In this document: in pieces, positions 11,299 to 52,409 of the stretch
Position numbering within the stretch: the first letter of the stretch is position 1
How the letters are laid out: the number at the start of each line of letters is the position of its first letter
DNA from: a virus
Lineage: Duplodnaviria; Caudoviricetes
Length of the DNA stretch: 64,000 bases
IMG/VR virus record: IMGVR_UViG_3300020049_008107
Coordinates: 9,735 to 73,734 of that record
Reading direction: 5' to 3' (one strand)
Notes under the pieces: model-generated
What the model saw: the letters and a program-made list of their open reading frames with translations, nothing else
The model's database searches: none
Told to the model about the DNA's origin: nothing
Translations under genes and position numbers: made by a program

Positions 11299-11721
11299 TT
11301 ATTTTAGATATTTCTTTATTGCTGCTAAAAACTTTGGCAAGTCACCATCATCTTTTAGTTTTACAATGGTATCACTATTATATTCATTCCATTTTTTGTT
11401 TATAATTAAAACACCATAACCATCATCTCTTAAACCAAGTTTGTCGGCAGCAAGTTTAATCAAAGTATTATTAGTTTTGTCCATTGTTGGAGTGCCGCCG
11501 ACATTTGGAAAAAGTTTGATTATAACACCACTACTGTCTTTCTTTGGTCTAATGGTAACCGACAAATCTGAGCTATTTAGCTCATCTGTTAGTTCTTTTA
11601 TTTGGGCTTTTATGTCTTTTAGAACATTGTTAATGGCTGTTTGTACGATTTTGCCACCTTCAGCTTTTCTAACTATTCTATTAAGTTGTGATTTTGTGAC
11701 TATATATTTCTTTTCTGTCAT
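11299..11721 (-). CDS. Leader-bearing protein 1 (putative internal head protein)
   Basis: N-terminus MTEKKYIVTKSQLNRIVRKA. Confidence 0.75.
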   Translation of the reverse strand: MTEKKYIVTKSQLNRIVRKAEGGKIVQTAINNVLKDIKAQIKELTDELNSSDLSVTIRPKKDSSGVIIKLFPNVGGTPTMDKTNNTLIKLAADKLGLRDDGYGVLIINKKWNEYNSDTIVKLKDDGDLPKFLAAIKKYLK

Positions 11722-11756
11722 TACCTTTATCTTTACCTAAATAAATATCGAATTTA

Positions 11757-12017
11757 TTACAGAGGTATCATTATATTTTGTAGTTTAAACATTTCAAAGT
11801 TGTATTCTCTAAGTTTAACGGCATTTATCTCCATTAAATTCAAAGATTCAAGCTCTGTACCAAGTAGTTTATATGCTAGATGGTCTATGTCTTTATTTTC
11901 TATTGGAGCAATTAGTTTTTCTCCAGAATATGGAATAAACTTGTGTAGTATCTTTACATCTACTAATTGACCATTTAGATTATACTTTGATGTAGAAACC
12001 CCAGTCCATTCAAGCAT
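11757..12017 (-). CDS. Baseplate LysM/P2 gpX-like protein
   Basis: 86 aa; DIDHLAYKLLG...LMEIN pattern; position between tube initiator and hub. Confidence 0.45.
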   Translation of the reverse strand: MLEWTGVSTSKYNLNGQLVDVKILHKFIPYSGEKLIAPIENKDIDHLAYKLLGTELESLNLMEINAVKLREYNFEMFKLQNIMIPL

Positions 12018-12022
12018 GTCTT

Positions 12023-12030
12023 TAAATAAC
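12023..12030 (-). promoter_or_regulatory. Putative late promoter GTTATTTA, 5 nt before ATG
   Basis: Fixed-spacing motif. Confidence 0.6.
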
Positions 12031-12075
12031 TATTTGGCGTATTTCTTGTTTATACCATAAACTAGCCCAATCCCA

Positions 12076-12465
12076 TTATTTTACCAAAATACCCATTTCT
12101 TTACCGTTTGGAATTCTTTTTTTTGTAAAAATGTCTAGGGCAGTTTCAATTTGTTTTTTATCCCAGTTTTTCCAGCGACTTTCTTTGACAAAAAAATCCT
12201 TTATTAGTTCATAAGCCCAGCCATCATCCTCTTTTATATCTTCTGGCGAATATCCTTCCATATCTTCATCGTTTGGATCATAACCATTAACAATCGATAA
12301 CCAATTAGCCCATTGAGAATGTGAACCTATTGTCTTATCAAATATTTTAAAGAAATCTGGAGATTTTGTTATTTTTTCTAATTTTGCTTTATTTTTTGTG
12401 TCTTCATTAGCTTTCCTAACAATTCTTTGTAATTGACTTTTTGTAACTATAAATTTTTTTTCCAT
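12076..12465 (-). CDS. Leader-bearing protein 2 (putative internal head protein)
   Basis: N-terminus MEKKFIVTKSQLQRIVRKA. Confidence 0.75.
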   Translation of the reverse strand: MEKKFIVTKSQLQRIVRKANEDTKNKAKLEKITKSPDFFKIFDKTIGSHSQWANWLSIVNGYDPNDEDMEGYSPEDIKEDDGWAYELIKDFFVKESRWKNWDKKQIETALDIFTKKRIPNGKEMGILVK

Positions 12466-12498
12466 TAGTATATTACCATCATTTAAATAATATCAAGA

Positions 12499-13098
12499 TT
12501 AATACGGTCTGTTACCTTTTGGTTTAAATGTTTGTTGTGTGCCTTGAACAAATCCAGCAATAGAACCAACTTTCCTTGCAATTATCCAAGCCCTATACAA
12601 AGCAGAATTCTCATCAAGAGTTAATTCCATATCAACCATTGTATAGGCAGCTAAACCAATCTTTGACGTTAATCTAGTGTCATTATCAAATGAACATTTG
12701 GTTACCCAATATCTAAGTGGGGTTCTGTGTGTTCCCCAATTGTATATTACTGAAGGATTAGTACGAAATTGACTACTTGGTTGCAATAGTTTAAGCAAAC
12801 TTGGTGAATCTTGATTGCGCAAGTTTTCAAATTGTGAAAGTTGTAGTGAGTTACCAGCAGCAGTTAAACGGTTAATAATTGGTAGTTGGAAGGACAACTT
12901 TGCAGAACCATTTCTATTAGGTTGAAGAGGAGTATAATTAAGTCCTGGTACTGTAATGTCTGCGAATAATACATCTTTTGTATCAGACACTTTTAATGGG
13001 ATGGTGCGTGAAGTTATAAAAAGATTGTTGGTGTCATCCCATATCCACCAATTTGTATATTTAAGACCTTGAACTGCTTTTAGATTAAATCCAGGCAT
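12499..13098 (-). CDS. Tail tube initiator/baseplate protein
   Basis: Directly after tape measure; PSVIYNWG...WVTKCSF pattern. Confidence 0.45.
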   Translation of the reverse strand: MPGFNLKAVQGLKYTNWWIWDDTNNLFITSRTIPLKVSDTKDVLFADITVPGLNYTPLQPNRNGSAKLSFQLPIINRLTAAGNSLQLSQFENLRNQDSPSLLKLLQPSSQFRTNPSVIYNWGTHRTPLRYWVTKCSFDNDTRLTSKIGLAAYTMVDMELTLDENSALYRAWIIARKVGSIAGFVQGTQQTFKPKGNRPY

Positions 13099-14657
13099 TA
13101 GTTACCGCGTTTTGTAGATGTTATATTTTGTACGTCTTTAAAACCCTGTTTTTGTTTATTTGCTACTTCATTAGATACACCCTTTGGATCAGAGCTATTA
13201 ATATTAAAGTTTTGTTGTACGTTTACTGGTGCATTGCCACTAGAACCACCACCACCATAATTACCACCACCACCAACTGGAGAAGTAATGGGTTGTGGAG
13301 AACCACCAAATACTTCTATACCTTTAGCTACAGCCTTGCCTAATGGAGTTTGTTTAAATTCATTCCACCATTGATTTAGTTTTTCTTCAATGGCATGCTT
13401 TATTGAAGAACCTATGCCAACAACAAAATTAACAAATTGAGTCCATATACTTTTTATTTTTGCTATCATTGAATTCCATTCAGTAACCACACCACTAAAC
13501 AGATTAGAACCGAAATTAAATATTCCATCGAAAATCCCTTTTCCCTTACCTCTAACCATAGTAAATAGAGCGTTTGCTTTATTCCATATCTTATCAAATG
13601 CACCAATTAAAAATCCGGTTACTGTGTCCCAATTTTGCCATAATAATATTGGGATTGCTAAAAATGGAGCAAAAATAGCTATACCAAATAACGCCCATTT
13701 CTTCCATTTATTCCAGAAAGTTTGTAAAAATGTTGTTATTCTAGTCCAATTCTTAATAAGCAATACTATGCCAGCAACAAGAGCCATCACACCAAGTACA
13801 ACCCAAGTTATGGGATTTGCTAGTAGTGCTACAGTAAAGCCAATCACCGCTGTTATGGCAGCACCAATAGCAGGAACTAAAGCCGACAATAAAGCAGAGG
13901 CTAAGAATGTTATGCCACCAGCAGCTAAAGCCTGTGTTAATACATCAAATTCTTCTATTGCTTTCATTGGATCATTAAAAAAAGCAGCTATGAAACTAAC
14001 TACTCGACCGAATTCTTCAAATATAGGGAATATAACATTTTTGAATGCCCATATTACTGCATCAGCAAGTACATCCATTACATCCTCAAGTAGCATTGAT
14101 ATAAAAGTAAAAACAAAAAATACCTTGAGTAATACCAAATTCAAGTAGTCAATAAACCCACCAATACTAGCTTTACCACCAGTAATTGCAGTCCATACCT
14201 TATTGAAACCACCAATTAGAGCATTTACAAGAGTAGTACCTATTGAATATATAGCCCTAAAAACATTCGCTATTACAGAGCCAATCTTAACAAATGCTGC
14301 CCTATTATCACGTACAAAATTCATCATCTGAACCAATATTGGAAGTATGAATTTGCGAATAGGTTGCGCAATATTTTGAATAATTGTTTCTTTCATCTGA
14401 CCAAAAACTTGGTCAATCTCTGGAATAGCTTGGTGTATAGAACCTAATAAACTACCAGCCATGTTAACCATAGCCATTTGTTTCATTATACCAAGTAAAT
14501 TGGTTAATGGTTTATGGCTACCACTAACTATATCATTCATCTTAGTAGCACCAGATACAATCGCACCAGTAGTATTAGTGAATGCCATATTAAGAAATTT
14601 AAGCGAATTTACAGCTAGGTTAGTTGGTAATAATAGTTCTATACCAACACGTTCCAT
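13098..14657 (-). CDS. Tail tape measure protein
   Basis: 519 aa helical, hydrophobic LLANPITWVVLGVMALVAGIVLLIKNW-type repeats, Gly-rich C-terminus with NFNIN; synteny. Confidence 0.75.
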   Translation of the reverse strand: MERVGIELLLPTNLAVNSLKFLNMAFTNTTGAIVSGATKMNDIVSGSHKPLTNLLGIMKQMAMVNMAGSLLGSIHQAIPEIDQVFGQMKETIIQNIAQPIRKFILPILVQMMNFVRDNRAAFVKIGSVIANVFRAIYSIGTTLVNALIGGFNKVWTAITGGKASIGGFIDYLNLVLLKVFFVFTFISMLLEDVMDVLADAVIWAFKNVIFPIFEEFGRVVSFIAAFFNDPMKAIEEFDVLTQALAAGGITFLASALLSALVPAIGAAITAVIGFTVALLANPITWVVLGVMALVAGIVLLIKNWTRITTFLQTFWNKWKKWALFGIAIFAPFLAIPILLWQNWDTVTGFLIGAFDKIWNKANALFTMVRGKGKGIFDGIFNFGSNLFSGVVTEWNSMIAKIKSIWTQFVNFVVGIGSSIKHAIEEKLNQWWNEFKQTPLGKAVAKGIEVFGGSPQPITSPVGGGGNYGGGGSSGNAPVNVQQNFNINSSDPKGVSNEVANKQKQGFKDVQNITSTKRGN

Positions 14658-18500: not shown

Positions 18501-18656
18501 ATGAAAGATAACAAAATATGGATGGTAGTGGTTGATTTTGGTGATTGTACTTCAGTTTATGGTAAATACAATAAAAAAGAAGCTTTATTGAAATATGATG
18601 AAGCAAAGAAATATAAATCAGCAGTTGAAGTTAATTTGGTTAAGGTGGTAAAATAA
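18501..18656 (+). CDS. Small hypothetical protein (51 aa)
   Basis: Manual: MKDNKIWMVVVDFG...; AAGGAACAAACA leader after promoter B. Confidence 0.6.
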   Translation: MKDNKIWMVVVDFGDCTSVYGKYNKKEALLKYDEAKKYKSAVEVNLVKVVK

Positions 18657-19363
18657 TGGAAGACATCAAATCTAAAATCAAGAAACTCCTCTCATTGGCA
18701 ACTAGTTCAAACGAAGCTGAAGCAATGTCCGCAATGACCAAAGCACAGGCACTAATGAATGAATACCGCATCAGTAACCTAGACCTTGAGTTATCTGGAA
18801 CTGATAATGAAATGGATATGTCATTAATTCAAGGACTTGGTAATTTTGACCATAAATGGAAGGGATTATTAGCTCAAACCATAGCAGAAGCAAACTATTG
18901 TATGACTATCAAATTCGCAAATGTTGGAACTAAGATAGTTGGTCGTAAAGAGAATATACTTGTAGCGAATGCAATGTTTGAATATGTGTTGTCATTCATC
19001 AAATCTAAGAAGCTTGGAAGTGCTGATCTCAAGAATTATGGTCTTGGTTTCTGGTTAGGTCTAAAGTCTAAACTAGAGGAAGGTAAATCGGCTTGGGTAA
19101 ATCAAACTCCTCATGCTGGAGAATTGGTAGTTGTTTACAATACCGAGATTACTAATCATCTTCAAACTATTGGTATCAAGACCAAATCAGCACCAGTTAA
19201 ATCCGGTATCTCTAGAAAAGGTGATATGGATTACTACGAAAACGGTATTAAAGATGGCAAGAATTTCAATTTATCAAAGCAAATGACCAGTAATGCTAAA
19301 GAATTAGAACAAAAATATGAATATGGCATGTCGCATATAAATGATCACCATTACTCATATTAA
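18656..19363 (+). CDS. DUF2786-domain protein
   Basis: KIKKLLSLATSSNEAEAMSAMTKAQALMNEY N-terminus is the DUF2786 signature. Confidence 0.75.
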   Translation: MEDIKSKIKKLLSLATSSNEAEAMSAMTKAQALMNEYRISNLDLELSGTDNEMDMSLIQGLGNFDHKWKGLLAQTIAEANYCMTIKFANVGTKIVGRKENILVANAMFEYVLSFIKSKKLGSADLKNYGLGFWLGLKSKLEEGKSAWVNQTPHAGELVVVYNTEITNHLQTIGIKTKSAPVKSGISRKGDMDYYENGIKDGKNFNLSKQMTSNAKELEQKYEYGMSHINDHHYSY

Positions 19364-22899: not shown

Positions 22900-23180
22900 G
22901 TGTTTTTTGGTTCGCCTTTCTGCATAAGACCACCACAGATTGATTTAAATTCAGTTATAATGTGCGAAACTGGTATAACCCCTACAACATGTTTGTGTAG
23001 TCTAAGGCATTGTACTACTCTGAGTATGCTGGTTTCATTAAGTTCTTTGTCTAGTATTAGAGCTATACACCTTTTTAGGTCTAATGATTGGTCGGGTGTT
23101 AATTCTTTTTTGCTGTGTTCTAATCTGTCTATTTCTTGGAATAGTGGTGATATGTGATAAGATTCTACTATCAAGTCCAA
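22896..23180 (-). CDS. Hypothetical protein
   Basis: 94 aa coupled to leader-bearing protein 4. Confidence 0.5.
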   Translation of the reverse strand: MDLIVESYHISPLFQEIDRLEHSKKELTPDQSLDLKRCIALILDKELNETSILRVVQCLRLHKHVVGVIPVSHIITEFKSICGGLMQKGEPKNT

Positions 23181-23470
23181 CTAGTAACCAGATTGTACAC
23201 AAGTTGTAGTGATTCCATTATTTTTTTTTGAATTTTTCTGTCTGTTATTTTCTGGGCATTACCCATAGCTTCAGCGGTTGCTTGCTGTAAGTGGAGTTTG
23301 GTCATTTCAAATGCTTCATCAAATTCGTCTTCTAAATACTTATCCTTCCAGTTATCTTTTCCACCAACAGCCGATTCAAAGGCAACGGGTGATTTTGGAT
23401 CAACTTCGTCTTTAGCTTTAATTACTAAACGTTTTAATTGTGATTTGGTTACTAGGTATTTGGAATCCAC
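23171..23470 (-). CDS. Leader-bearing protein 4 (putative internal head protein)
   Basis: GTG start, MDSKYLVTKSQLKRLVIKA. Confidence 0.75.
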   Translation of the reverse strand: MDSKYLVTKSQLKRLVIKAKDEVDPKSPVAFESAVGGKDNWKDKYLEDEFDEAFEMTKLHLQQATAEAMGNAQKITDRKIQKKIMESLQLVYNLVTSWT

Positions 23471-24960: not shown

Positions 24961-27120
24961 CTATATTTCTTCTAAATAAAATATGTATTTATAAGTCAAA
25001 TGTGTTTCATTTATCTTAGTAACATTATATACTAAATTTCTTGGCAGGAGTACTTCAAATTCCTTATCCTCAAATGAACCAGCAAGCTTGTTGATATACA
25101 CACCAGATTTAGTTTGTATTATCATCCTATAAGGTCTATTAAAAGCCTTATCTTCTTTAATAGAGGTAGAGGTAAATCCGCGTAAAATAAGTGGTTGTTT
25201 AGCATTAAATCTGTCTAATATTACCTTAGCTAACTGGTCTGTATCAAATCCCCTATATACAACACCAGCAAATTTAGGTGCATACAGTAGGAATCTATCA
25301 ACATTTCTAATGTCAACTAGCTCATTAGCGGTTAATTTAGTATTAAACCTAAGTCCTTGATTATAATCATGACCTGAACCAGTGTATGCACTAACCGATT
25401 GTACTATGTCAGGAGACTTAGCCTTTACATCACTAATATACTTATTAATATTCTTTTCATGATTTTTAGGTACAATATCCATCACCCTAGACATACCAAG
25501 ACTAGACAGGTCTTTACTTGTCGGATCATAAGGCAAACAAGTAGTAGATTCAATATGTTGTATCATTTGTGACACTTCAGACTTCGAATTTACCCTAATA
25601 CCAGTAGTTAGTTCATACCAAGTAGTTAGCTTTTTAAATTTAGGGTGTGACTGTAATTCACCCATATCAGTATCAAGTATATCATTCTTCTCATTTTTAT
25701 CAAGTACTACAGCAGAACCATAATTGTTATTGATAAATCTTTTTTGCATATAATTAAATCTTGCTTTAAGAATGGCATATATACTACTAGTTTTAATAAC
25801 GTTTAGTACTTTAAGCATTTGGGGTTGATATTTATTGAACTGTTTAATTAAGTCGTCTTCATCTAAAGCACCAAACACCTTAGAAGCTTCTGGATTTATA
25901 CTACCATTACGCATAGTCTCAAATTCTGTCACTTCTTTGGTAAGGTCTTTATTTCCACCAGTAGCCTTGTAGGTTAGTGCGCCACCATTATCAATCCTAT
26001 AGACCTTACCATCTTTTACTATGATATTGCTACCACCAGTACCAATTACATCCCAATTTCCAAGCCATGCATCAATGATAAATGAGGAACGAAGTTTAAG
26101 TATAGCCGAATTTCTATCATTTTCAGAAAGCTTACCAAATTCAGTGCCATCAATATACTTAGATAGTTGGTATGCCTTACCTTGGTCATCGGATTTGATT
26201 GTAGTTTCTGGTACATCAATACCAATAGTGTTGTATATGCTATTAGCTAAACTTTCACTCTGTATGTGTCCAGCACTAGCACCATATTTTTGAACATAGA
26301 CTATTCCATCGACTAACACTGGTTTTGCTCCAGTAGAAGATGAACCAATAATTGGTAAAGTGGGTGTTACATTAGCAGACTTTGGAAGTGCCGTTTGATT
26401 AGAAGTCTTATCCTCAAGCTTTATACCAGTTCCATAAGTCTTAATAAGATATAAGATTTCGAGTTTGGTCATTGATGATATCTTATCACCTTGAACTTTA
26501 CCAATGTCACCCAGATAGTATAATTGCTCTTGTATAAATGGATCAGCATGGAACTTCTGAATTGTTAAGAACTTATATTTGTCTAATGGGTGTGGTTCTG
26601 GTTTCTTATTTGCTACAGTTCCAGTTGATGATAATGGTGTAGATGTAGTGGGTTTGTCTAGTTTGGACTTATTTCCACTATCAATCTTATCAGTATATTT
26701 TTGATATAAAGTAACAATTAGAGTATTTGATATAGAAGAGTTTGTTGGAACTAACCACTTGAAAAATCTCCAATCTGGAAATACATTTGGATAAAATGTC
26801 CACTTATTAAGCATTCTATTAAATGCATCAAAAGCTTCAGGACTAGACCTTTTTAATAAGACGGTTTTAACTAGTGCTGATACTAATTTTGTAGTGTCGG
26901 CATTCATATAATTAATGAATTCGCGTTTTTTGGTTCGGTCTAGATAAAAACCAGAGTAACCCTTTAATATGTGGATTTTTGATGCTTTATTGGCAAATAT
27001 CTGTTTAAATGTTGAAGTAATAGAAGAACTATTAAAATTAGATGTTACATCAGTTGATTTTCTTACTAATATTGATGTAGCTTGAAGATGTAAAGATTTT
27101 AATACCTCAAGTCTATGCAT
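24961..27120 (-). CDS. Multidomain kinase-like + ADP-ribosyltransferase (R-S-E clade) protein
   Basis: Kinase-like: VQK, SESLANSIY..IGIDVP, DAWLGNWDVIG..SNI, RIDNGG. ART: YTGSGHDYNQGLR, VYRG, FTSTS, KEFEVLLPR. Confidence 0.8.
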   Translation of the reverse strand: MHRLEVLKSLHLQATSILVRKSTDVTSNFNSSSITSTFKQIFANKASKIHILKGYSGFYLDRTKKREFINYMNADTTKLVSALVKTVLLKRSSPEAFDAFNRMLNKWTFYPNVFPDWRFFKWLVPTNSSISNTLIVTLYQKYTDKIDSGNKSKLDKPTTSTPLSSTGTVANKKPEPHPLDKYKFLTIQKFHADPFIQEQLYYLGDIGKVQGDKISSMTKLEILYLIKTYGTGIKLEDKTSNQTALPKSANVTPTLPIIGSSSTGAKPVLVDGIVYVQKYGASAGHIQSESLANSIYNTIGIDVPETTIKSDDQGKAYQLSKYIDGTEFGKLSENDRNSAILKLRSSFIIDAWLGNWDVIGTGGSNIIVKDGKVYRIDNGGALTYKATGGNKDLTKEVTEFETMRNGSINPEASKVFGALDEDDLIKQFNKYQPQMLKVLNVIKTSSIYAILKARFNYMQKRFINNNYGSAVVLDKNEKNDILDTDMGELQSHPKFKKLTTWYELTTGIRVNSKSEVSQMIQHIESTTCLPYDPTSKDLSSLGMSRVMDIVPKNHEKNINKYISDVKAKSPDIVQSVSAYTGSGHDYNQGLRFNTKLTANELVDIRNVDRFLLYAPKFAGVVYRGFDTDQLAKVILDRFNAKQPLILRGFTSTSIKEDKAFNRPYRMIIQTKSGVYINKLAGSFEDKEFEVLLPRNLVYNVTKINETHLTYKYIFYLEEI

Positions 27121-27121
27121 G

Positions 27122-27280
27122 TTAGTTTGTAGATAACATTTCTTCCATGTCTTGTGGTAAATTGAGTGAATTGTAGAGCTTGTCTACTGCAAAATCCAAA
27201 TCTGACTTCTTTATATCAGTGGGTTTGTCTTTTGCAGGAGCCTCAGGCTCTGGTATTAAGTCGGAATCTTCATCTTTCAT
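27122..27280 (-). CDS. Small acidic hypothetical protein (52 aa)
   Basis: Manual: MKDEDSDLIPEPEAP...; coupled on both sides. Confidence 0.5.
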   Translation of the reverse strand: MKDEDSDLIPEPEAPAKDKPTDIKKSDLDFAVDKLYNSLNLPQDMEEMLSTN

Positions 27281-27552
27281 AATTTGGCAAGCTCAGCATC
27301 AACAACAGACTTTGATTTTGAAAAGTCCTTATTTTTGCCTTGTTTTAGTATCTTATCTGTAGCTTTATCAATTATTGACCAATTAGAAGTCTTTCTATTA
27401 ACAAAACACTCAAGAATTTTTTGGTCATCATTAATAACAGTTTTAGTAAACCCATTACCAGCAGCATTAAGTTTCCAATCATCAGTTACACTAACTGCCT
27501 TCTGTACCAGTCTTTTTAGTTGACTCTTTGTAACTATAAATCTTTTTTCCAT
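27277..27552 (-). CDS. Leader-bearing protein 5 (putative internal head protein)
   Basis: N-terminus MEKRFIVTKSQLKRLVQKA. Confidence 0.75.
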   Translation of the reverse strand: MEKRFIVTKSQLKRLVQKAVSVTDDWKLNAAGNGFTKTVINDDQKILECFVNRKTSNWSIIDKATDKILKQGKNKDFSKSKSVVDAELAKL

Positions 27553-32308: not shown

Positions 32309-33022
32309 TCATATTTTAATATCGAATAAATGTACTTGTGATTTATGACAATATAGCACATCAGTTTGATACTTATTATTTTTGTGTATTGATATTGCTG
32401 AAGTGTGTCTACCAACTTCAATAAAATCATCGGGCATTTGATATTCACTTATTAATATTACATGATTTTTTGATTGTTTTCTACACCAATTATAGAACTT
32501 CTCATAGTCAAAACTAACATTATATTTAACAGTTTTAGCCGATTTATATGGTGGATCACAATATATAAGCGAATTTTGTGGAATATCTAATTCATCATAA
32601 CTACAATTATAGAATTCAACATCTTTTATGAGTGGCAATTGTTTCAACAGTGATCGACTTACATTTGAAAATTTCGATGGTCTATTTTTAGACCTTGGGT
32701 ATCCGCACCAATATTTAGCACCAAATGAACAAAAACCAACAAACGCAACTAGTTCTGGTTGATAATGATCTTTGTTATTTTTTATGCGATTATATTGGTC
32801 TTCAGTGATATCAGTGGGGGGAATCCAGCCACCTTGTAATGCTTCCCACATAATTATCAATTCTGAATGGATGTCAGATGCAATACGCTTACCACCAATT
32901 TTGTCAATTACATTACACCCACCACAAAAAGGATCAACATAATATTCATAATTATTGCGTATTTTGTTAATTATTGGAACAAAAGTTTTTGATTGTCTAA
33001 ACTTACCACCAGAATATTGCAT
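32309..33022 (-). CDS. Dam-like (D12-class) DNA N6-adenine methyltransferase
   Basis: QYSGGK N-terminus, DPFCGG SAM-binding motif, IYCDPPY catalytic motif. Confidence 0.8.
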   Translation of the reverse strand: MQYSGGKFRQSKTFVPIINKIRNNYEYYVDPFCGGCNVIDKIGGKRIASDIHSELIIMWEALQGGWIPPTDITEDQYNRIKNNKDHYQPELVAFVGFCSFGAKYWCGYPRSKNRPSKFSNVSRSLLKQLPLIKDVEFYNCSYDELDIPQNSLIYCDPPYKSAKTVKYNVSFDYEKFYNWCRKQSKNHVILISEYQMPDDFIEVGRHTSAISIHKNNKYQTDVLYCHKSQVHLFDIKI

Positions 33023-33216
33023 TAATCATTAATCCCCTTTTCAATTATTCGGACAATTCTAAATAATAATATTGAAATGGCTATTGCGAAACAGAACCAC
33101 ATTGACAGAAATATTTGAAAGTTGTTTTTATACAAATTCTGTAATTCTTTGATAAACACTATTACCAAGATAATTTCAAGATTGCGCAATAGTTCAATAA
33201 AAAACTTGTAGGTCAT
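33022..33216 (-). CDS. Small membrane protein
   Basis: 64 aa, two hydrophobic segments, coupled. Confidence 0.45.
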   Translation of the reverse strand: MTYKFFIELLRNLEIILVIVFIKELQNLYKNNFQIFLSMWFCFAIAISILLFRIVRIIEKGIND

Positions 33217-33842
33217 TTCTTCTTTGCCTTTAAAGTGGCTTTCCCTTTCTTTCCGTCAACATCAAAAAGTATTTCGGCTACTTTATGTCCAATCATCATG
33301 TCTTTGAGTTTTCCAGAATTAAGGAAACGCTGTAGCCCTTTTCTTATCGGATATCGAGCAGGGATTTTGATAACTGTGGTACTCGCTTTTAAATGGATAC
33401 CTAAGATATGTAGAAACCCCCTCATTCTATCAGTAACTGGAATAGTTGCACCAAATTCATGTATTACCCATAAATCGCGATTTTTGATTGGTTTTTGGTT
33501 TCCTTCTTGATAATGAGTGCCAATTCCAGAAATTATGTACCCTTTACTAGTTTTGCGCCAGCCAAGCGAATTAATCATACTCTTTGGCTCTTTGTCACCT
33601 CTACCCATAAGTGGAGTACGGACTCTAGAATAACCTTTAGTTTCTTTGATTTTAATAGTAGCTTGTGATAATGGTGGTCGAACTAAGTTGGCTTTACGAA
33701 TACCATCTTTAATAGTTGCGACTACTTCAGCTGCAATATCTTGAGCTATAGAATCTGATAAAGCTGGAATTTTAGAACCAGCTTTTTTTAGAGAGTTTTC
33801 AAGCTTGATAAAGCTCTTAGATTTTCTTACTAATAAGGGCAA
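33213..33842 (-). CDS. Virion morphogenesis/tail completion protein (Mu gpG/HK97 gp10-like)
   Basis: PPLSQATIKIK, IHEFGATI...IKIPARYPI motifs. Confidence 0.6.
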   Translation of the reverse strand: MPLLVRKSKSFIKLENSLKKAGSKIPALSDSIAQDIAAEVVATIKDGIRKANLVRPPLSQATIKIKETKGYSRVRTPLMGRGDKEPKSMINSLGWRKTSKGYIISGIGTHYQEGNQKPIKNRDLWVIHEFGATIPVTDRMRGFLHILGIHLKASTTVIKIPARYPIRKGLQRFLNSGKLKDMMIGHKVAEILFDVDGKKGKATLKAKKK

Positions 33843-34187: not shown

Positions 34188-34811
34188 TTATATCGAGTTC
34201 ATGTTAATTGGTACAGTAGAATAATCAAATAACTTTAAGTTACCATTATGATCAATGCCTATTTGTCTAGACATTTCATCAGCAAAAGTAGACTGTACCC
34301 CTGTGCTACTAAGAAAATCCTTAAGTTTATTGTTAATATCATCCCATTTTGTTTGGTCTACAGTTTCAAGATGATTCGGATCAACGTCAAGACCATCACC
34401 CTTCGCATTTACCATATAACGCTCTGGTAATTGAGTAACAATTTCGGCAAACAGATATTTATAGCCAGCAGCACTCGTTATTAACTTACATTTAGTAAAC
34501 ATACCAAACTTTGCTTGAAATTGCTTATAGATTCTGTATTCATCTACGTTGTCTTCTACACCTTTGTTCATATGAAACGGTATCTTTAAAACCATGTTTG
34601 GTGATACTTGTGCTACAACCCTTGAGTATCCACTACCAAGATATTTAATACCAAGAGTCTTTATTCGTTTTTTAATGGCTTCTCTTGTCTCTTTCCATGT
34701 TAATTTTTTAGCCAATATTCTATCAAATCCAGACAAATACTTGTCAGCTATACCCTTTCGGACAATCCTTTGAAGTTGTGATTTAGTAACTATAAATCTA
34801 GGTTCTACCAT
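34188..34811 (-). CDS. Leader-bearing protein 6, protein-kinase-like
   Basis: MVEPRFIVTKSQLQRIVRKG leader; LGSGYSRVV Gly loop, VLKIP, NVDEY, DEMSRQIG, LKLFDY. Confidence 0.7.
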   Translation of the reverse strand: MVEPRFIVTKSQLQRIVRKGIADKYLSGFDRILAKKLTWKETREAIKKRIKTLGIKYLGSGYSRVVAQVSPNMVLKIPFHMNKGVEDNVDEYRIYKQFQAKFGMFTKCKLITSAAGYKYLFAEIVTQLPERYMVNAKGDGLDVDPNHLETVDQTKWDDINNKLKDFLSSTGVQSTFADEMSRQIGIDHNGNLKLFDYSTVPINMNSI

Positions 34812-35200
34812 ATATTTTGTACCTTCCATTTTTGAATTACAAGTTTAAGATTATCAATTACTGCATATGGGTTATCTCTTATTTCTACTGCCATATATCT
34901 TACTGTAATAAATCCTTGAGTGAGTGCTGTTCTGTCTTTGCGTCTGTCATCAAGGAGTTTGTCTCTAGAAGAATGCCATTGAAATGAGTCTATTTCTATT
35001 ATTATATTAGTACCAGTAACATAAAAATCCGGTCGTCTCATACCAAGTTCTGTGATTGATGCTTGTGGAGAAAGTTCTATACCTGCTTGAAAGGCTAGTT
35101 TATGGAATTTTTCTTCTGGTGGCGAACCATACCCATGTTTAAAAGGTTGTGGTACTTTACCGTATAAGTCTAATATAAATGTTATTAGACGAATAAGCAT
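34805..35200 (-). CDS. DUF559-like PD-(D/E)xK endonuclease
   Basis: SPPEEKF, RPDFY, IIIEIDS..WH, DRRKD...GFITVRY. Confidence 0.75.
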   Translation of the reverse strand: MLIRLITFILDLYGKVPQPFKHGYGSPPEEKFHKLAFQAGIELSPQASITELGMRRPDFYVTGTNIIIEIDSFQWHSSRDKLLDDRRKDRTALTQGFITVRYMAVEIRDNPYAVIDNLKLVIQKWKVQNIW

Positions 35201-35203: not shown

Positions 35204-35431
35204 TTACATTAAGTATTCTAAAGCACCACTAACAACATGCAGTACATTGTGTACTATATTATTCTTTTCTTTGCCTTCTAAAGTATTTGCATATCTAGCA
35301 ATGGCACTCTCAGCATTTTTCAATGCTGAAATAGTTGCCTGTTTTGTATCATCAGACTTAGTAATGCTATTTTTTGATTTCTCAACTAATCTCTTTAGTT
35401 GAGATTTTGTAACGATTATTTTCTTTTCCAT
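35204..35431 (-). CDS. Leader-bearing protein 7 (putative internal head protein)
   Basis: N-terminus MEKKIIVTKSQLKRLVEKS. Confidence 0.75.
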   Translation of the reverse strand: MEKKIIVTKSQLKRLVEKSKNSITKSDDTKQATISALKNAESAIARYANTLEGKEKNNIVHNVLHVVSGALEYLM

Positions 35432-45425: not shown

Positions 45426-45812
45426 CTACTTCATTAAACCAGCAACTACACTAGAACCAACACCGAACCTACCTAATGGATACGATGTCCCATTGGCAAC
45501 AAAAACTAGATTGACTACATCAGCATTATCACCATCTACAATCTTGAGTTCACCTTTAATTTTCTTCCTTTCACCCAAAGCAGCCTTTTGCACTAGTCTT
45601 TTTAATTGTGATTTGGTAACTATTATTTTATCTTCTGACTTAGCAACCAATTTTAGTTTACCAGTGCGTATTTTATCCTTAATGTTTGCAATCATTTCTT
45701 GATATTTAGTACCATTAAGACTATACACTAAGGACTTATTATCATTATCAATTTCGATTATCTTTAATGTACCTTGACCTGATTGTATTCTATCACCAAT
45801 TTTTAATTCCAT
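45426..45812 (-). CDS. Leader-bearing protein 10 with internal leader
   Basis: LVAKSEDKIIVTKSQLKRLVQKA in mid-protein. Confidence 0.7.
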   Translation of the reverse strand: MELKIGDRIQSGQGTLKIIEIDNDNKSLVYSLNGTKYQEMIANIKDKIRTGKLKLVAKSEDKIIVTKSQLKRLVQKAALGERKKIKGELKIVDGDNADVVNLVFVANGTSYPLGRFGVGSSVVAGLMK

Positions 45813-45815: not shown

Positions 45816-46358
45816 TTATACCTTATATTGAATGCTATGTTCTAAGAAACCTTTTGCAAGTAAAGCATCTCTAATTATGATATTACTTACTTTAGCAATT
45901 CCCTTTTCGAACTTGACCTTATTGTTTTCGTCAATCTCTACAATACCCTCCCACCCTTCACCTTCCATATTATCGGTATGAGCGATAACCCAATAATCAA
46001 TTTCTCGTTCTGATTTTTGAACTGGCGGTTTAACATCTGTATTGTATGGTTCATGAATAAACTTCATATCTTCCATAGACTTGATTAATTGACCAGATGA
46101 AATTCCAGGAGGCAAATCTAAAGCAACACGACCATCTTCTAAAGTAAGGAAGATTACATTGCCATTAAGCCTAATAGAACTTCCAGATTTACCTTTTGAA
46201 GCAGCATGTGGCAAAAAGAAGTGTATTTTACCATCTTCCCACTCAACAGGTTTGGATTCGATATCATCTTCTAATACAGATTGAGCTTGAGTTTCCTCAA
46301 GCCCATCAAGGATACTAGAAGAGGAAACCGATTTGTCAGTTTTCCTCTTAAGTGCCAT
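45816..46358 (-). CDS. Hypothetical post-capsid protein
   Basis: 180 aa coupled to the capsid gene. Confidence 0.6.
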   Translation of the reverse strand: MALKRKTDKSVSSSSILDGLEETQAQSVLEDDIESKPVEWEDGKIHFFLPHAASKGKSGSSIRLNGNVIFLTLEDGRVALDLPPGISSGQLIKSMEDMKFIHEPYNTDVKPPVQKSEREIDYWVIAHTDNMEGEGWEGIVEIDENNKVKFEKGIAKVSNIIIRDALLAKGFLEHSIQYKV

Positions 46359-47752
46359 TATTCTACCCTAAGTCCTCGTGTAACATAACTTGAATCTGCA
46401 AAACTAGGAACTAATGCACCATAGGTTTTGATAAGGAACGGAAGTTCGTCATCTGTTTTAGCTAATTCTTCAACAGTAACTAAACCATTGAATTTAGAAC
46501 CAGCAGTATTAGTATAGGCGAATTTACCAAGACCTTGGATTTTATCCAAATCCCATAACCAAACAGACTCTGGAGCTACACTACCAGTTGCAACGTAAGG
46601 TCTGTCATCAACTTGTGTACCTTTAATTTCAGCAGTTGGAATTGTAGGATTAACGGTAAATGTATAACCAGTTGTATCACCAGTAATTGTACCAGCACCA
46701 TCGTAAGTAAATGCCGAGATAATTCTTACAAGAGTAGCAGTTGCAGCACTAGTACCGCAGTAAATACGGTATTGTAAAGCATCAGCTTCTGCTGTCCATG
46801 TAAGGTTAATTACAGAAGTTGCACCAGTAGTAGTTACAGCAATAGGGGTACTTGCTAATTGTTCACCATTGTATGAGCAATGAGAAACATAAAAATAATA
46901 AGTATTAGCTGGAACTGTTCCACCAGTAGTTGGTTCAGTATGTCCAATAGCACCAGTTTGGAATTGTGGTTTGGTAAATGTAGTCTCAATGATTGGGATA
47001 TTACGGTAAGCATTTAAACGCCAACCACCATTAATCTCAATTTGAGTTAATCCAGAACCAGTAAGTCCTTGCATTAATCGTACATTCTCAAGAAGTCTAG
47101 AAACCTTAGATAGCATTTCAGGAGACATAACGATTGCCTTTTTATGGTGTGCACCTTGTTTACGGGTGTTGTTGTCAATCATATCGTCAAGAAATTTAAG
47201 ATTTGCTGGAACTTCCCCACCAAGAGCCTTATTCTTACGATTGATAGAACCATGAATGAATGAATCTATACCAGAGAATTCAAACCCGTTTGCATCATTG
47301 TTTCCATAGTAAAGATAGAAACTTAAATCAAGTGCATGAGCATAAAGATGGTTTTCCATCTCAACAGCAGCAGCATCGATGTACTTTTCAGAAGCATCTT
47401 TTAAGAAGTTGGTAACAGCACCCTTTCTTCTGATAATACGCATTCTAACCCCATCTCTGAGGTATTGAGCATTACGAGTGGGAGTTGTCGCACCTTCACC
47501 CATAGCACCACCTTGTTTAGGAAGAGCCACTAAGCGGTTGAACTCATGCAATTTTTGGTTATCAAACTCTGGCTCAATAATCGCCATTTCTGGCAATAGA
47601 TAGAGAACAGTATTTGTGATAACTTGTTCGAGTTTTTGTGGGATGAGTGCTTCACCTTGATTAGTGATAGAACTCAATGCCTTTTGTACAAGATTCTTGG
47701 CATTACCAGAGAACTTGTTTACTTGATTAAAGACCTGTGTGTTTGATAACAT
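46358..47752 (-). CDS. Major capsid protein (HK97 fold, Ig/FN3-like insertion)
   Basis: 464 aa after the scaffold; ALIPQKLEQVI, YGNNDAN..EFSGID, IKTYGALV; beta-rich insert TYYFYV...INLTW...YRIYCG. Confidence 0.85.
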   Translation of the reverse strand: MLSNTQVFNQVNKFSGNAKNLVQKALSSITNQGEALIPQKLEQVITNTVLYLLPEMAIIEPEFDNQKLHEFNRLVALPKQGGAMGEGATTPTRNAQYLRDGVRMRIIRRKGAVTNFLKDASEKYIDAAAVEMENHLYAHALDLSFYLYYGNNDANGFEFSGIDSFIHGSINRKNKALGGEVPANLKFLDDMIDNNTRKQGAHHKKAIVMSPEMLSKVSRLLENVRLMQGLTGSGLTQIEINGGWRLNAYRNIPIIETTFTKPQFQTGAIGHTEPTTGGTVPANTYYFYVSHCSYNGEQLASTPIAVTTTGATSVINLTWTAEADALQYRIYCGTSAATATLVRIISAFTYDGAGTITGDTTGYTFTVNPTIPTAEIKGTQVDDRPYVATGSVAPESVWLWDLDKIQGLGKFAYTNTAGSKFNGLVTVEELAKTDDELPFLIKTYGALVPSFADSSYVTRGLRVE

Positions 47753-47755: not shown

Positions 47756-49654
47756 TTATACCCTTCCTGACTTAGCACTTGTGCCGAAAATGTGATTCAT
47801 TGCGTGACCTAAATCTTTTCTGACAACACCGACATTACCAGCAGATTTAGAGCCATCTTCTTTCAAAGTTTTTAGTGATTTTTTCACTAAAGAAAGATTC
47901 TCAATTGTTGAATCTCCACCAGATGTAAACGATGGAGTTGATCTACCACCAGCATACTCTTTAGCGATTACATCAGTAATGCCCATACCATCAAGGATAA
48001 ATCCAAGGGATTTTTTAACGGTATTTAATTCATGAGCTTGAGCGGTAACAACGTTCGCAAGTTTGGCAATAGAACCAATCAAGGCTTTATGTACTTGAGA
48101 ATTACCAGCATTTACTTGTGGACGAGCATTTGATTTCTGCACTCCAGTATTTGTTCTGCGTGACATAGAAGCAAGGCTTTTTGCAAGAGCCATAGTAACT
48201 TCATCAGCATCTTCACCATCTTCTTTCAAAGCTTTTTCAAGCTCTTCATCAGACATTTCAACTGGTTCTGGTGTAGAAGTCCCATCGGGGATTAGGTCAT
48301 CTTGATTTTCAAGAGATGGGTTATCCAATTCACCCTTACGCACTTTGGACTTTCTAATCTTCAAGGATTTTGCAATCATTAAAGCCTTAGTGATCTCATC
48401 TTCTGTTAAATCTTCATCAGCCATATTTACCTCGTCTCCATCGGGTTCTTCGCCTAATTCGTCTTTTAGGGCTTTCATAAGTTCTTCATCTGTCATTGAA
48501 ACAGGCTCGTCTCCATCAGGTTCTTCCATAGCTTGCATTAGCTCTTCGTCTGATAATTCTACGGCATCATTGCTGCCATTTGGATCATCAGTTGGAGGAT
48601 TACCTGTTAATTCATCCATAGTAACATCTTCTTCTGCCATATTAGCATCTCCATTATTAGTTTCGCCGTTATTACCGCCGTGTTGACCTACAGCATCTTT
48701 ACCAGCTTTAATCTGTCCAAGCTGGTCTAGAATCGACTTTATGTTGTTTACAAGTGCAGTTTCTTCAGGACTTAGCATGGAACCTTTTTCTACCAATTTA
48801 TTATTAGATAAAGACTTATTAATTTGTTGCAATTCTGGTACTATTAACTCCTTATATTCTTTAAACAATTTATCAATCTTTTCTGCTTTAGTTGCATCGT
48901 CACAATCTTCCATTTTTATTTCTTCAAGAGAATCATCAAAAGCATCTTGGATTTTTGACTTACGAAGATAGTCGGATGTTATCTTCTCATCACCAACAAG
49001 TTTTTGTTTTATTAATGAATCACCACCATTTTCTGATGAAAGGGCTTCTTTTTTTACCAAAGCTTTGCTAACTGCTGAAGCGATAGACGCTTTATAAGCT
49101 GGACATGGTACAAGTACTACACCATCAAGTACAATATCATCCATTACACGCCTGTCATCATCAAGCATCTCTTTAATACCACCATCAGGAACAGCACCCT
49201 CAACAGAAAATCCGCGTTGTTTAGCATGTTTATATGGTGGTAAACCAAGTAATTGTTTCCATGTCATATCAGCAGTATCTAAGTTGAACTTACCAACACT
49301 GTCATACTGGTCATACAAACGAAATGTAACAAACCAATCACCATTAGGCAGTACTTTACATGAATGAAGAATGCCAATGTCTTGGGTTGCTTTAATACCA
49401 TGTTCATCTGGATAAAGTAGAATGTCACCAGAATTGGCTTGTTTCATAAATGATTGGATACATTTTGGAGTTACAATCTCACCATGACCATCAACAGAAT
49501 TACCAGAAACTACACCCTCTACGTACCTTCGCTTTCTACCTTTTTCATCCTCTTTATACACCCCATATTCAGTTTTTTTTGACTTGTTTACATGAGATAC
49601 ACCAGAAAAAACAAACGAAACTCTACTTAAATCTTTGGTTGCAACAGCAGGCAT
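47756..49654 (-). CDS. Prohead protease-scaffold fusion
   Basis: N-terminal VEGVVSGNSVDGHGEIV, GFSVEG, LDGVVLVPCPAY (HK97/U35-like); long acidic coiled-coil C-terminus. Confidence 0.8.
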   Translation of the reverse strand: MPAVATKDLSRVSFVFSGVSHVNKSKKTEYGVYKEDEKGRKRRYVEGVVSGNSVDGHGEIVTPKCIQSFMKQANSGDILLYPDEHGIKATQDIGILHSCKVLPNGDWFVTFRLYDQYDSVGKFNLDTADMTWKQLLGLPPYKHAKQRGFSVEGAVPDGGIKEMLDDDRRVMDDIVLDGVVLVPCPAYKASIASAVSKALVKKEALSSENGGDSLIKQKLVGDEKITSDYLRKSKIQDAFDDSLEEIKMEDCDDATKAEKIDKLFKEYKELIVPELQQINKSLSNNKLVEKGSMLSPEETALVNNIKSILDQLGQIKAGKDAVGQHGGNNGETNNGDANMAEEDVTMDELTGNPPTDDPNGSNDAVELSDEELMQAMEEPDGDEPVSMTDEELMKALKDELGEEPDGDEVNMADEDLTEDEITKALMIAKSLKIRKSKVRKGELDNPSLENQDDLIPDGTSTPEPVEMSDEELEKALKEDGEDADEVTMALAKSLASMSRRTNTGVQKSNARPQVNAGNSQVHKALIGSIAKLANVVTAQAHELNTVKKSLGFILDGMGITDVIAKEYAGGRSTPSFTSGGDSTIENLSLVKKSLKTLKEDGSKSAGNVGVVRKDLGHAMNHIFGTSAKSGRV

Positions 49655-49659: not shown

Positions 49660-49667
49660 TAAATAAG
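49660..49667 (-). promoter_or_regulatory. Putative late promoter CTTATTTA, 5 nt before ATG
   Basis: Fixed-spacing motif. Confidence 0.6.
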
Positions 49668-49675
49668 TATACAAA

Positions 49676-49750
49676 CTAAAAAGTGCTTGACAAGGAAAGT
49701 ACCCCATGAGAAAATGACAAAAGAGGATATTACTAATACCTCGATAAAAT
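49676..49750 (+). promoter_or_regulatory. Early sigma70-type promoter cassette, copy C
   Basis: TTGACA (49687-49692)-17 bp-GAAAAT; hairpin; CGATAAAA; inverted twin of copy A. Confidence 0.75.
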
Positions 49751-49766
49751 AAATAAGGAACAAATA

Positions 49767-50292: not shown

Positions 50293-50293
50293 T

Positions 50294-51076
50294 TTATTTC
50301 TTAAGCTGCATGTCATAGCGAATGGAACATCTACAACCAGCGATATCCTCTAAAGTAGCACCAAGAGAGGAATCATGTGGATGTTTCATTACCACTGTTT
50401 TATTGGTCTTAGGATTCTTATAGGTAAAGTTTTGATCATTCGGAATAGTCTTGCCATGCAATTTGAGATGTTCATGTCTAGGTACTTTTGATTTTTTATT
50501 ATGAATCCAGGTTTTTGTAAAAACCAACTTAGGGTTTTTCTTTTTTAATTGATCAATATACCCATGTCTCATCTCATTTGAAGTAGACATAATCTCAGTA
50601 ACTGCAATAGTCTTTATATTTGGTGGAATACCAGTTTTCTTATCTTTCTTGGTATATCCAGCATACGTCTCTCGGAGTTTCTGTTCAAAGACTTCGACCA
50701 ACTTATCATTAACCTTACCAGCATACCTACCACGCTGCGCAGAAGTCTGTACTTCTCTTATTGTGTCATTAAGGTCTTGAATTAGCTTATCTCGAAGAGT
50801 GTTAGTAATAATCTTGCCACCTTCTGCAGATTTTTTAGTGAGAAGGTCATCAGTCATTATCTCTTTGAAATTAGGAAATAGGACTTGCTTTGGTTTATTC
50901 CCTTTTAATTTAGCAATATGATCATCAACACGTTTATTTGAAATATTGAGCATATTTGATGCAACTTGTTTGGAATTATTCTTAAGTATTAATTGAACAA
51001 GGTCTTGGTAATTCTTACCATTCCAACCTAATTTGCCATACTTCTTCTTAAGATAATCTAAATCGCGTTTTGCCAT
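50294..51076 (-). CDS. MuF-like minor head protein
   Basis: TIAVTEI, KTWIHN...PRHEHLKLHGKTI, HPHD, AGCRCSI. Confidence 0.8.
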   Translation of the reverse strand: MAKRDLDYLKKKYGKLGWNGKNYQDLVQLILKNNSKQVASNMLNISNKRVDDHIAKLKGNKPKQVLFPNFKEIMTDDLLTKKSAEGGKIITNTLRDKLIQDLNDTIREVQTSAQRGRYAGKVNDKLVEVFEQKLRETYAGYTKKDKKTGIPPNIKTIAVTEIMSTSNEMRHGYIDQLKKKNPKLVFTKTWIHNKKSKVPRHEHLKLHGKTIPNDQNFTYKNPKTNKTVVMKHPHDSSLGATLEDIAGCRCSIRYDMQLKK

Positions 51077-51077
51077 T

Positions 51078-51905
51078 TTATGCTAGGTGTTCAAACCCCT
51101 TACGTACAAAACCATTACCATTTTTCTTTGGAACAAACTCAAATTGCTCTTCTTTTTGAAATAGCTTCTCCTCGTCAAAAATGGGCATATCTTGAGCTTT
51201 ACTAACAGTCACTAAATCCGGAATTTTACCAACTTTCTTACGAAGGTCTTGTATTTCCTTTTGTAATTGCCTATTTTCAATAAATAGTTCATGGTGTGCA
51301 TCTTCAGCAATAATTGGTATATCTTGACCATTAGCAACCTTCTTTTGGTATTGCATGTTTTCAAGACCAATACGGCTAGTGGTACGACTTATCCAACTAA
51401 CAACTGGAGACAATGTACCTCGAAGAACAAAAACCGACAATTGAACCACTTCGCCTATCGGATGAGTTAGAGGACTAAATACCTTCATAAAATCACCAGA
51501 AAACTGGAGCTTTCTAATATCAACTTCCTTAAGTACTCTATCAATAAATCTCATTACGATAAATGAGCCATAACCAACAACAATACCATACAACGCAAAA
51601 ACAATCATAATTGTTTTAAACATTTCAAGACTTACACTAGAGATTGCAAATAATGGGAAAAAGTTGAAAAAGACAACTATTCCAACAATTACAAACCCCA
51701 TATTGTACAAGTTGCGCCACGCTCTAGATTCTTGTATTGAATCGTAAAGAATTACGTAACTAAATATTGCAATATAATTACCAGTGACTACCCAAAATCC
51801 AGCCGATTCTCTTTCTGGATACAAAAAGAAAAACAACATATAAAGAGCGGACATACCAGTAATTAGCCAAAGTTTTTTATGGTCTTGTATCTGTAGCATG
51901 TCCAC
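51078..51905 (-). CDS. Multi-pass membrane protein
   Basis: Four hydrophobic helices then a coiled coil. Confidence 0.6.
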   Translation of the reverse strand: MDMLQIQDHKKLWLITGMSALYMLFFFLYPERESAGFWVVTGNYIAIFSYVILYDSIQESRAWRNLYNMGFVIVGIVVFFNFFPLFAISSVSLEMFKTIMIVFALYGIVVGYGSFIVMRFIDRVLKEVDIRKLQFSGDFMKVFSPLTHPIGEVVQLSVFVLRGTLSPVVSWISRTTSRIGLENMQYQKKVANGQDIPIIAEDAHHELFIENRQLQKEIQDLRKKVGKIPDLVTVSKAQDMPIFDEEKLFQKEEQFEFVPKKNGNGFVRKGFEHLA

Positions 51906-52030
51906 CTCTTAAAAAGATCAAAAATCCAACTACCAGCATAAAAATGAGCACTGGATAGATTACATATTTTAACAAAGATGGTATTACATATACAAAAAAT
52001 GCAATCATGATTGGTAATATAAGTATGAAT

Positions 52031-52228
52031 CTAAGGACTTGCAATATCGTAATCCTCTGTGACATTACCAATACAGTGACCTTTCTTATCCCAAACTTGA
52101 GCATGCCACCAACCATTAATACCAGCAGCAGTTTTACCAGCATAACCATTATGAGTTTCACTAGTTACTTTGGCTTCAGTTCCATTTTTAAGTTTTATGG
52201 TTTTGTTTGGATCAACAACAATTTTCAT
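52031..52228 (-). CDS. Small hypothetical protein
   Basis: Likely start MKIVVDP at 52228. Confidence 0.45.
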   Translation of the reverse strand: MKIVVDPNKTIKLKNGTEAKVTSETHNGYAGKTAAGINGWWHAQVWDKKGHCIGNVTEDYDIASP

Positions 52229-52244
52229 AATATTATTATCGTAC

Positions 52245-52409
52245 TTATGACCTTGTGTAGCGTTCAATTGATGTAGGCAAAGAATCTGGCATTTCGAGTT
52301 CGTCAATGAACTTTCTCATAGTATCTAAATTTAATTCTTTATCCTCTTCTCTTATACGTTTAATTACTCGTACAAGTTGAGATTTAGTAACTACAAATTG
52401 CTTTTCCAC
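52245..52409 (-). CDS. Leader-bearing protein 11 (54 aa, not in the ORF track)
   Basis: Manual: GTG start, MEKQFVVTKSQLVRVIKRI...YTRS. Confidence 0.65.
   Translation of the reverse strand: MEKQFVVTKSQLVRVIKRIREEDKELNLDTMRKFIDELEMPDSLPTSIERYTRS

Follow-up and report, generated by a model that had tools for sequence, protein, structure and literature searches.

To our knowledge, the loading of proteins into a phage head by means of a peptide tag is experimentally established essentially only for T4-type phages, in which the tag explained how anti-restriction proteins arrive with the DNA and became a tool for the packaging of foreign proteins. The T4 prohead protease is said to cut after Glu (L/I-x-E), and Alt, an ADP-ribosyltransferase (ART), is reportedly packaged and processed as well. 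Prohead proteases act inside procapsids, as is established for T4 and HK97. The internal proteins of the T-even phages form a diverse set in which the capsid targeting sequence (CTS) alone is conserved (PMC3012670), and the N-terminal propeptides that the prohead protease removes in the giant phages phiKZ and SPN3US may each contain several cleavage motifs (PMC10052503). The subject of this text is an 18-residue leader shared by eleven otherwise dissimilar proteins of an uncultured tailed phage. The stretch of DNA analyzed, hereafter the window, is 64,000 nucleotides long and covers bases 9735-73734 of the 73,734-bp contig IMGVR_UViG_3300020049_008107 (G+C 34%), whose two ends overlap, so that the assembly is circular or complete. 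We favor, with moderate confidence, the reading that the leader is an N-terminal propeptide of the T4 CTS type, which would target cargo proteins to the procapsid and be removed there by a Lys-specific prohead protease.

The conserved block reads E-K-K-[FYI]-[IVL]-V-T-K-S-Q-[LV]-x-R-[LIV]-[VI]-x-K-[AS], and its V, T, K, S, Q, and R are invariant in the alignment. An earlier note on this DNA, made from the sequence alone, had listed eleven open reading frames (ORFs) with a common N-terminal motif, and the translations confirm the motif in all of them (Table 1). The shared block itself stands and proves longer than had been claimed, but its N-terminal placement does not hold throughout, since it is internal in the product of 45426-45812. 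A hidden Markov model (HMM) of the leader, run over the six frames of the whole 73,734-bp genome, recovers exactly these eleven copies and no others, and a degenerate DNA pattern for the peptide has nine matches in the window vs. none in 100 dinucleotide-preserving shuffles. The bodies that follow the leader had been described as lacking visible similarity, and BLASTP among the eleven window bodies indeed finds none at E < 1e-3. Selection acts at the level of the peptide, since the residues are invariant while their codons vary. In a tally of 22 leader copies from the window and its relatives, which also takes in one out-of-frame chance match to V-T-K-S-Q, the invariant Ser is encoded by six codons of both codon families (TCA, TCT, TCC, TCG, AGT, and AGC), Val by four, Thr by three and the conserved Arg by four; the synonymous variation reported in the earlier note is therefore real. 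RNAalifold predicts zero pairs for the 5′ coding region of the leader, where no conserved RNA structure was found, and a structured RNA element in this region was rejected on that ground. The leader is charged throughout and contains no hydrophobic stretch; a Sec, Tat, or lipoprotein signal peptide is ruled out by this missing hydrophobic core. No family in Pfam, PHROGs, or NCBIfam covers the leader, and a literature search with its core hexapeptide returned no papers.

The leader also occurs outside this genome. A profile search of 1.84 billion representative proteins (E ≤ 0.001) gives 28 matches, nine from the window itself and 19 foreign, and in all 28 the leader starts within the first nine residues. 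The contigs fetched for the 19 foreign proteins are those of related uncultured phages with the same capsid family. The census of cargo families that the earlier note had called for, together with this search, comes to 34 leader proteins, which fall into 29 body families. At least six leader genes lie within 19 kb of the relative with 89% capsid identity (L007, L010). In a lineage at 69-70% capsid identity (L001, L003-L006), whose contigs reach 55-58 kb, the count is at least seven intact copies plus a truncated remnant. No leader was seen in the 21-kb head-tail region of a 61% relative (L002), in 12 kb of another 70% lineage (L009), or in the structural region of Leptospira phage LE3. The degenerate DNA pattern has no match in IMG/VR, where no capsid relatives were found either; a relaxed pattern has three matches in the JGI metagenomes, all due to chance (stop codons or out of frame), and a word-based homologue search with one leader protein returned only that protein. 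Orthologous bodies are 28-31% identical, with leaders that are nearly identical. The matches of three bodies to PHROGs (weak or unnamed) and to the ESM Atlas span the body alone, which marks the leader as an add-on. Taken together, these comparisons support the view that the leader is a portable module placed on unrelated bodies.

Comparison at the DNA level with the closest relatives points in the same direction. L010 and L007 align collinearly with the window, with a nucleotide identity of 69-91%, but this collinearity is lost at the leader genes. At 35204-35431, the homology with L010 that enters from upstream ends 55-61 nt into the leader (window position 35376, 55 nt into the coding sequence); at this site L010 carries the same leader on an unrelated protein of 143 aa, and homology resumes at the next gene. 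The genes 34188-34829 and 27277-27552 are wholly missing from L010. L007 has three different leader genes in place of 45426-45812, and an orthologue of the C-terminal half of the latter lies beyond the adaptor gene. In L005, two neighboring leader genes share about 100 identical nt of upstream sequence and leader (12120-12225 and 12605-12710), forming a direct repeat that flanks one cargo body, and a truncated leader remnant of 19 codons (12987-13046) lies upstream of a foreign gene for an SNase-family nuclease with a signal peptide. The repeat and the remnant are, as judged from their sequences, traces of cassette turnover. Cargo genes are thus polymorphic between related phages, through breakpoints, indels, and replacements, with the tag retained, and the alignments indicate that bodies are swapped, inserted, and deleted at the 3′ end of the leader.

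Modeling supports the presence of a prohead protease in this phage, located in the N-terminal part of a 632-aa protein whose gene lies directly upstream of the capsid gene. The first 200 residues, modeled with AF2 from eight homologues (pLDDT 68), have T4 gp21 as the sole significant fold match in the PDB (5jbl; E 5e-5, TM 0.5-0.6, probability 1.0), and H57, H85, and S150 are invariant in 8/8 homologues. The remainder of the protein is acidic and scaffold-like. A junction site between the two parts, A-V-x-K-A-L (residues 194-199; 49058-49075), is likewise invariant in the eight homologues and is also present in LE3. Within the scaffold part, K-[AS]-L occurs ten times, vs. 0.68 expected from shuffles (about 15-fold, p < 5e-5; 30 occurrences in the whole proteome), and at P3 these sites have Ile, Leu, or Val without exception. 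A single job that co-folded the leader with the protease domain, run without controls, gave a score of 0.00, which speaks neither for nor against binding.

The same motif, [ILV]-x-K-[AS], is common to the leader, the capsid protein, the protease/scaffold junction, and the scaffold. A typical leader holds it twice, as the core V-T-K-S and as the terminal V-x-K-[AS]. In the major capsid protein [ILVM]-x-K-[AS] occurs only once, at residues 22-25, where K24-A25-L26 is invariant in 38/38 homologues (51-100% identity) within [ST]-L-[IV]-x-K-A-L, and the residues that precede the K24 site vary in length and sequence. In the capsid model this site closes an N-terminal helix (residues 4-25) and is followed by a loop that leads to the N-arm. 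The nearest folds are the capsids of SPO1 (E 9e-20) and phi812 (Herelleviridae), with encapsulin shells also among the matches; weak PDB profile hits place an FN3-like insertion at about residues 299-368. Additional copies of the motif are present within 18 residues after the leader in nine of the 34 proteins, a 4.6-fold excess (p = 0.002). When the leader profile is compared with those of the capsid and protease-scaffold families, the match is not significant (E of about 0.1), and the best alignments fall on the K-[AS] sites. Among non-leader proteins, an N-terminal [LIVM][LIVM]-x-K-[AS] is mildly enriched by our own count (five vs. about 1.7 expected).

A separate arrangement is seen in L009, the lineage in which no leader was seen. 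Two adjacent paralogues in its head module (6089-6484 and 6507-7085) share a body that begins right after a V-A-K-S site, and the N-terminal segments ahead of this site are dissimilar. These segments are possibly propeptides of another kind that would be cut by a protease of the same type.

Among the tagged proteins, only the product of 34188-34829 has a body with a recognizable fold within the window, being similar to phage protein kinases (phrog_4301, residues 47-204). The usual spacing of the leader is obtained only from its second Met, where translation probably starts. ESM-Atlas structure alignments of this protein begin at residues 17-26, which leaves most or all of the leader outside the fold. 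P0123, a 62-aa protein from another assembly, matches its first 47 residues and then diverges to an early stop; it reflects either a frameshift in the kinase-like cargo gene of a near-identical phage or a fault in the assembly. In 45426-45812, the leader follows a domain of 59 aa that resembles the C-terminal body of the same protein and ends in an L-V-A-K-S site; a stand-alone orthologue of its C-terminal half, P0126 (98% identical), starts at the leader. The leader of 52245-52409 is degenerate in its second half, with K-R-I instead of x-K-[AS], and the body of 12076-12465 is weakly similar to that of a leader gene at L005 12650.

The window also encodes a large ART protein, whose N-terminus resembles a stretched leader (V-L-K-S-L, a seven-residue spacer, and L-V-R-K-S) and is conserved in L010. 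The large ART proteins of the relatives measure 568-839 aa. Their genes are located behind the portal gene, in the head module, in three lineages (L001 5970-8162, L002 5612-7318, and L009 2978-5497). In the window and the 89% relative (L010 10497-12650), the ART gene instead has a putative sheath-like gene on one side and a putative tube-like gene on the other. The protein encoded at 33213-33842, which has a site-like motif near its N-terminus that is conserved in L010, could conceivably be a further substrate of the protease.

A mechanism can be proposed in which the tag, a basic and amphipathic segment of 18 residues, would carry its fusion partner into the procapsid during assembly. Docking would probably be achieved either by binding to the very acidic scaffold part of the 632-aa protein or by mimicry of the N-terminal propeptide of the capsid protein. 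The prohead protease domain would then cut after Lys in [ILV]-x-K/[AS], with two predicted sites per typical leader (V-T-K/S, and V-x-K/[AS] at its end), and the freed cargo would remain in the head and leave with the DNA at infection. With one and the same tag on all cargo proteins, the DNA that encodes it would double as a recombination handle, at which cargo genes are exchanged, gained, and lost. The earlier note had read the leader as a modular address tag of the capsid: its portability, the prohead protease, and the shared motif are borne out in silico, and the logic is that of the T4 CTS (PMC3012670); packaging, removal of the leader, ejection, and a role of the cargo in the host, such as anti-defense, are predictions of this reading. 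More tentatively, and with less confidence than the propeptide reading itself, the leader and a Lys-specific protease-scaffold fusion may constitute a self-contained, lineage-specific packaging code, which would load at least 29 fast-changing cargo families into the head for delivery to the host. A kinase-like enzyme would be among them, as would, probably, a fusion of kinase and ART, and the leader DNA would act as a recombination handle between phages and between sites of one genome.

Several points weigh against the propeptide reading. Eleven cargo species are many for a genome of 74 kb, and some of the leader genes are found within the tail module or a block of non-structural genes. The leader sites do not have the P2′ Leu present at the capsid and scaffold sites, and four of the ten scaffold K-A-L sites belong to an internally repeated acidic unit and are hence not independent. 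The predicted specificity for cleavage after Lys derives from conservation and enrichment alone, and the invariant K-A-L of the capsid protein could serve scaffold binding instead of cleavage. The virion proteomics of LE3 and LE4 did not recognize the capsid protein and contains no data on processing (PMC6078989).

The most serious alternative, which we still regard as unlikely, is that the leader is a helix through which the proteins dock to another hub, of phage or host origin, or a tag that a host protease reads for degradation or timing; the likeness to the protease motif would then be a coincidence. Its basic amphipathic pattern would suit a generic interaction helix, and the spread of leader genes beyond the head module fits such a role. 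However, both the V-T-K-S core and the V-x-K-[AS] end match a motif that does not vary at either of the two expected maturation sites and that the scaffold contains in excess, the extra sites cluster directly behind the leader, and the whole system is confined to phages of one capsid/protease family. The location of 11299-11721 and 12076-12465 between the tape-measure and baseplate genes, and of 27277-27552 beside a putative sheath-like gene, might instead suggest that the leader sends proteins to the tail, for example to the lumen of the tube or to the tape-measure protein, so that they exit through the tail and never pass through the capsid. This is improbable: gene positions shift between close relatives and therefore say little, the motif links the leader to the capsid and protease-scaffold proteins and not to tail proteins, and the activity of prohead proteases is confined to the procapsid interior.

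The break of homology at the 3′ end of the leader, the repeat of about 100 nt in L005, and the A-rich first codons would also be expected if the 5′ segment were kept mainly as a recombination handle and an A-rich region for the start of translation, with a peptide that has no function. This is very improbable, because the residues are invariant and the codons are not (Ser being encoded by both TCN and AGY), a variation that would weaken a handle at the DNA level, and because RNAalifold finds no conserved structure. Least probable of all is a nucleic-acid-binding arm, of the type of the HU/IHF N-terminal helix or of the strand-helix of ribbon-helix-helix proteins, that would tether the proteins to DNA. 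The leader is basic and presumably bears a loose resemblance to the HU/IHF helix, but the Pfam, PHROG, and NCBIfam searches match no DNA-binding family, the bodies are mutually unrelated and do not contain the remainder of such folds, and we know of no DNA-binding unit that consists of an 18-residue segment of this kind alone.

The propeptide reading thus calls for a comparison with described systems, of which the T4 CTS (on IPI-III and Alt, with gp21 as protease) is the closest. The features found in silico are those of the CTS class: the same N-terminal peptide on unrelated bodies, a prohead protease, a shared motif, and polymorphic cargo. As in T4, a short conserved N-terminal tag is present on diverse proteins and ends in the type of site that prohead proteases use, cargo loci are hypervariable from one relative to the next, an ART (here with a leader-like N-terminus) is among the tagged proteins, and gp21 is the nearest fold of the protease. 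Unlike in T4, cleavage would follow Lys ([ILV]-x-K/[AS]), each tag has two sites, the protease is fused to a scaffold, and the eleven tagged genes, in a different phage lineage, are scattered over 41 kb of a 74-kb genome instead of being clustered in a few loci. By analogy, the leader system would match the T4 CTS in kind and differ from it in sequence, cleavage chemistry, number and scatter of cargo, and phage lineage. Membership in the T4 CTS sequence family was rejected, as the leader contains no conserved Glu-type site and is covered by no Pfam or PHROG family; it is not known to resemble the T4 CTS in sequence.

Maturation of the capsid in this phage would resemble the Lys-type processing of HK97 and A511, with a predicted cut after Lys and before Ala or Ser at about 24 residues from the capsid N-terminus. 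Gp5 of HK97 is reportedly cut at K103/S104. Cps of Listeria phage A511 is said to be cut at K23/S24, and capsids of the SPO1/phi812 group presumably lose about 23 N-terminal residues after a Lys. We know of no phage of the HK97/A511 type with a shared leader on accessory proteins. The capsid and scaffold of Staphylococcus phage 80alpha are said to carry L27-like N-terminal leaders that are cut by the host cysteine protease Prp. These are also short, common to several proteins, and cut off at a fixed motif, but mimic a host ribosomal protein and occur on capsid and scaffold only, not on variable cargo. Encapsulin cargo-loading peptides likewise are portable short peptides on unrelated cargo of an HK97-fold shell; they are usually C-terminal and uncleaved, have other sequences, and involve no protease. 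Such a peptide is ruled out here by the N-terminal position of the leader in 28/28 matches, the presence of a protease, and the tailed-phage genome. The propeptides of the giant phages are long and mutually dissimilar, with the cleavage motif alone in common, whereas here the whole 18-residue leader is conserved; the clustering of extra sites behind the leader is a feature that the two share (PMC10052503).

If the propeptide reading is true, a second and unrelated tag in a small, distant lineage would mean that the strategy arose on more than one occasion. The protease code built into this tag would be clearer than that of T4, and each genome would carry far more types of cargo. The tag would also provide a sequence criterion by which injected effectors can be recognized in uncultured phages and a compact tag/protease pair for engineering, and dozens of small uncharacterized proteins would become candidates for host takeover in the first minute of infection or for counter-defense.

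The coordinates of the leader genes and of the other features are given in Table 1.

Table 1. Leader genes, candidate protease substrates, and head genes of the window (positions in window coordinates).
Feature	Position	Strand	Details
Leader ORF, 140 aa	11299-11721	-	Leader codons 11662-11715; HMM 46 bits
Leader ORF, 129 aa	12076-12465	-	Leader codons 12409-12462; HMM 50 bits
Leader ORF, 121 aa	19387-19752	-	Leader codons 19693-19746; HMM 49 bits
Leader ORF, 99 aa	23171-23470	-	GTG start; leader codons 23414-23467; HMM 41 bits
ART protein, 719 aa	24961-27120	-	C-terminal ADP-ribosyltransferase domain (PF03496); leader-like N-terminus at 27055-27108
Leader ORF, 91 aa	27277-27552	-	Leader codons 27496-27549
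Possible substrate, 209 aa	33213-33842	-	N-terminus M-P-L-L-V-R-K-S; site-like motif at residues 4-8
Leader ORF, 213 aa (207 aa from second Met)	34188-34829	-	Leader codons 34752-34805
Leader ORF, 75 aa	35204-35431	-	Leader codons 35375-35428
Leader ORF, 94 aa	42244-42528	-	Leader codons 42475-42528; variant Q-V-E-R-V-I; HMM 41 bits
Leader ORF, 102 aa	42893-43201	-	Leader codons 43142-43195; HMM 42 bits
ORF with internal leader, 128 aa	45426-45812	-	Leader at residues 60-78; leader codons 45582-45635
Major capsid protein	46358-47752	-	HK97 fold with FN3-like insert; probable maturation site L-V-Q-K24/A25-L at 47675-47695
Protease-scaffold protein, 632 aa	47756-49654	-	
Acidic scaffold-like C-terminal part of the 632-aa protein	47756-49084	-	87 acidic and 53 basic residues
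Predicted prohead protease domain of the 632-aa protein	49085-49654	-	N-terminal ~190 residues; AF2 model with T4 gp21 fold match
SPP1-gp7-like head morphogenesis protein	50294-51076	-	
Leader ORF, 54 aa	52245-52409	-	GTG start right after the portal gene; leader codons 52353-52406; HMM 38.5 bits
Portal	52411-53949	-	
Large terminase, gpA-type	55299-56915	-	

Genes for a head-tail adaptor, tape-measure, baseplate, and fibers are also present in this tailed-phage genome, all on the minus strand. The late strand to which the earlier note assigned the leader genes is not established by their orientation: the minus strand carries all eleven, but it holds 106 of 128 crude ORF calls overall. The note also has them scattered between structural genes, but two are located in a block of small non-structural genes together with a Dam-type methyltransferase. 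The gene for this N6-adenine methyltransferase (32309-33022, minus strand) and one for a DUF2786/DUF7168 protein (18656-19363, plus strand) lie inside a supposedly structural stretch, which is therefore a mosaic of structural and non-structural genes. Leader gene 23171-23470 sits among plus-strand ORFs, and 27277-27552 is flanked by a gene for a putative sheath-like protein of 593 aa and by the ART gene.

Comparison at the DNA level with the phage records of INPHARED gives no match for the genome. By capsid protein, the closest cultured relatives are the Leptospira phages LE3 and LE4, with 48% identity; their host is Leptospira biflexa. The LE3 homologue is gp27; the paper on LE3 and LE4 identified no capsid gene (PMC6078989).

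Between the portal and head-morphogenesis genes, 51078-51905 (minus strand) encodes a protein of 275 aa whose N-terminal half contains several hydrophobic segments. Such a membrane-like protein is unusual for a head module, and a homologous N-terminus is found at L005 1396-2073. An adenylosuccinate-synthetase-family gene (PF00709, E 1e-38) is located at 1870-2904 on the minus strand, and a relative has one as well (L003 18405-19472). The heptamer TTATTTA is found a few bases 5′ of several start codons (9/118 ORFs in a crude count). The genes preceded by it include the protease-scaffold gene and three or four leader genes, the starts at 23470, 11721, and 12465 among them; at 23470, TTATTTA lies 5 nt 5′ of the start codon.

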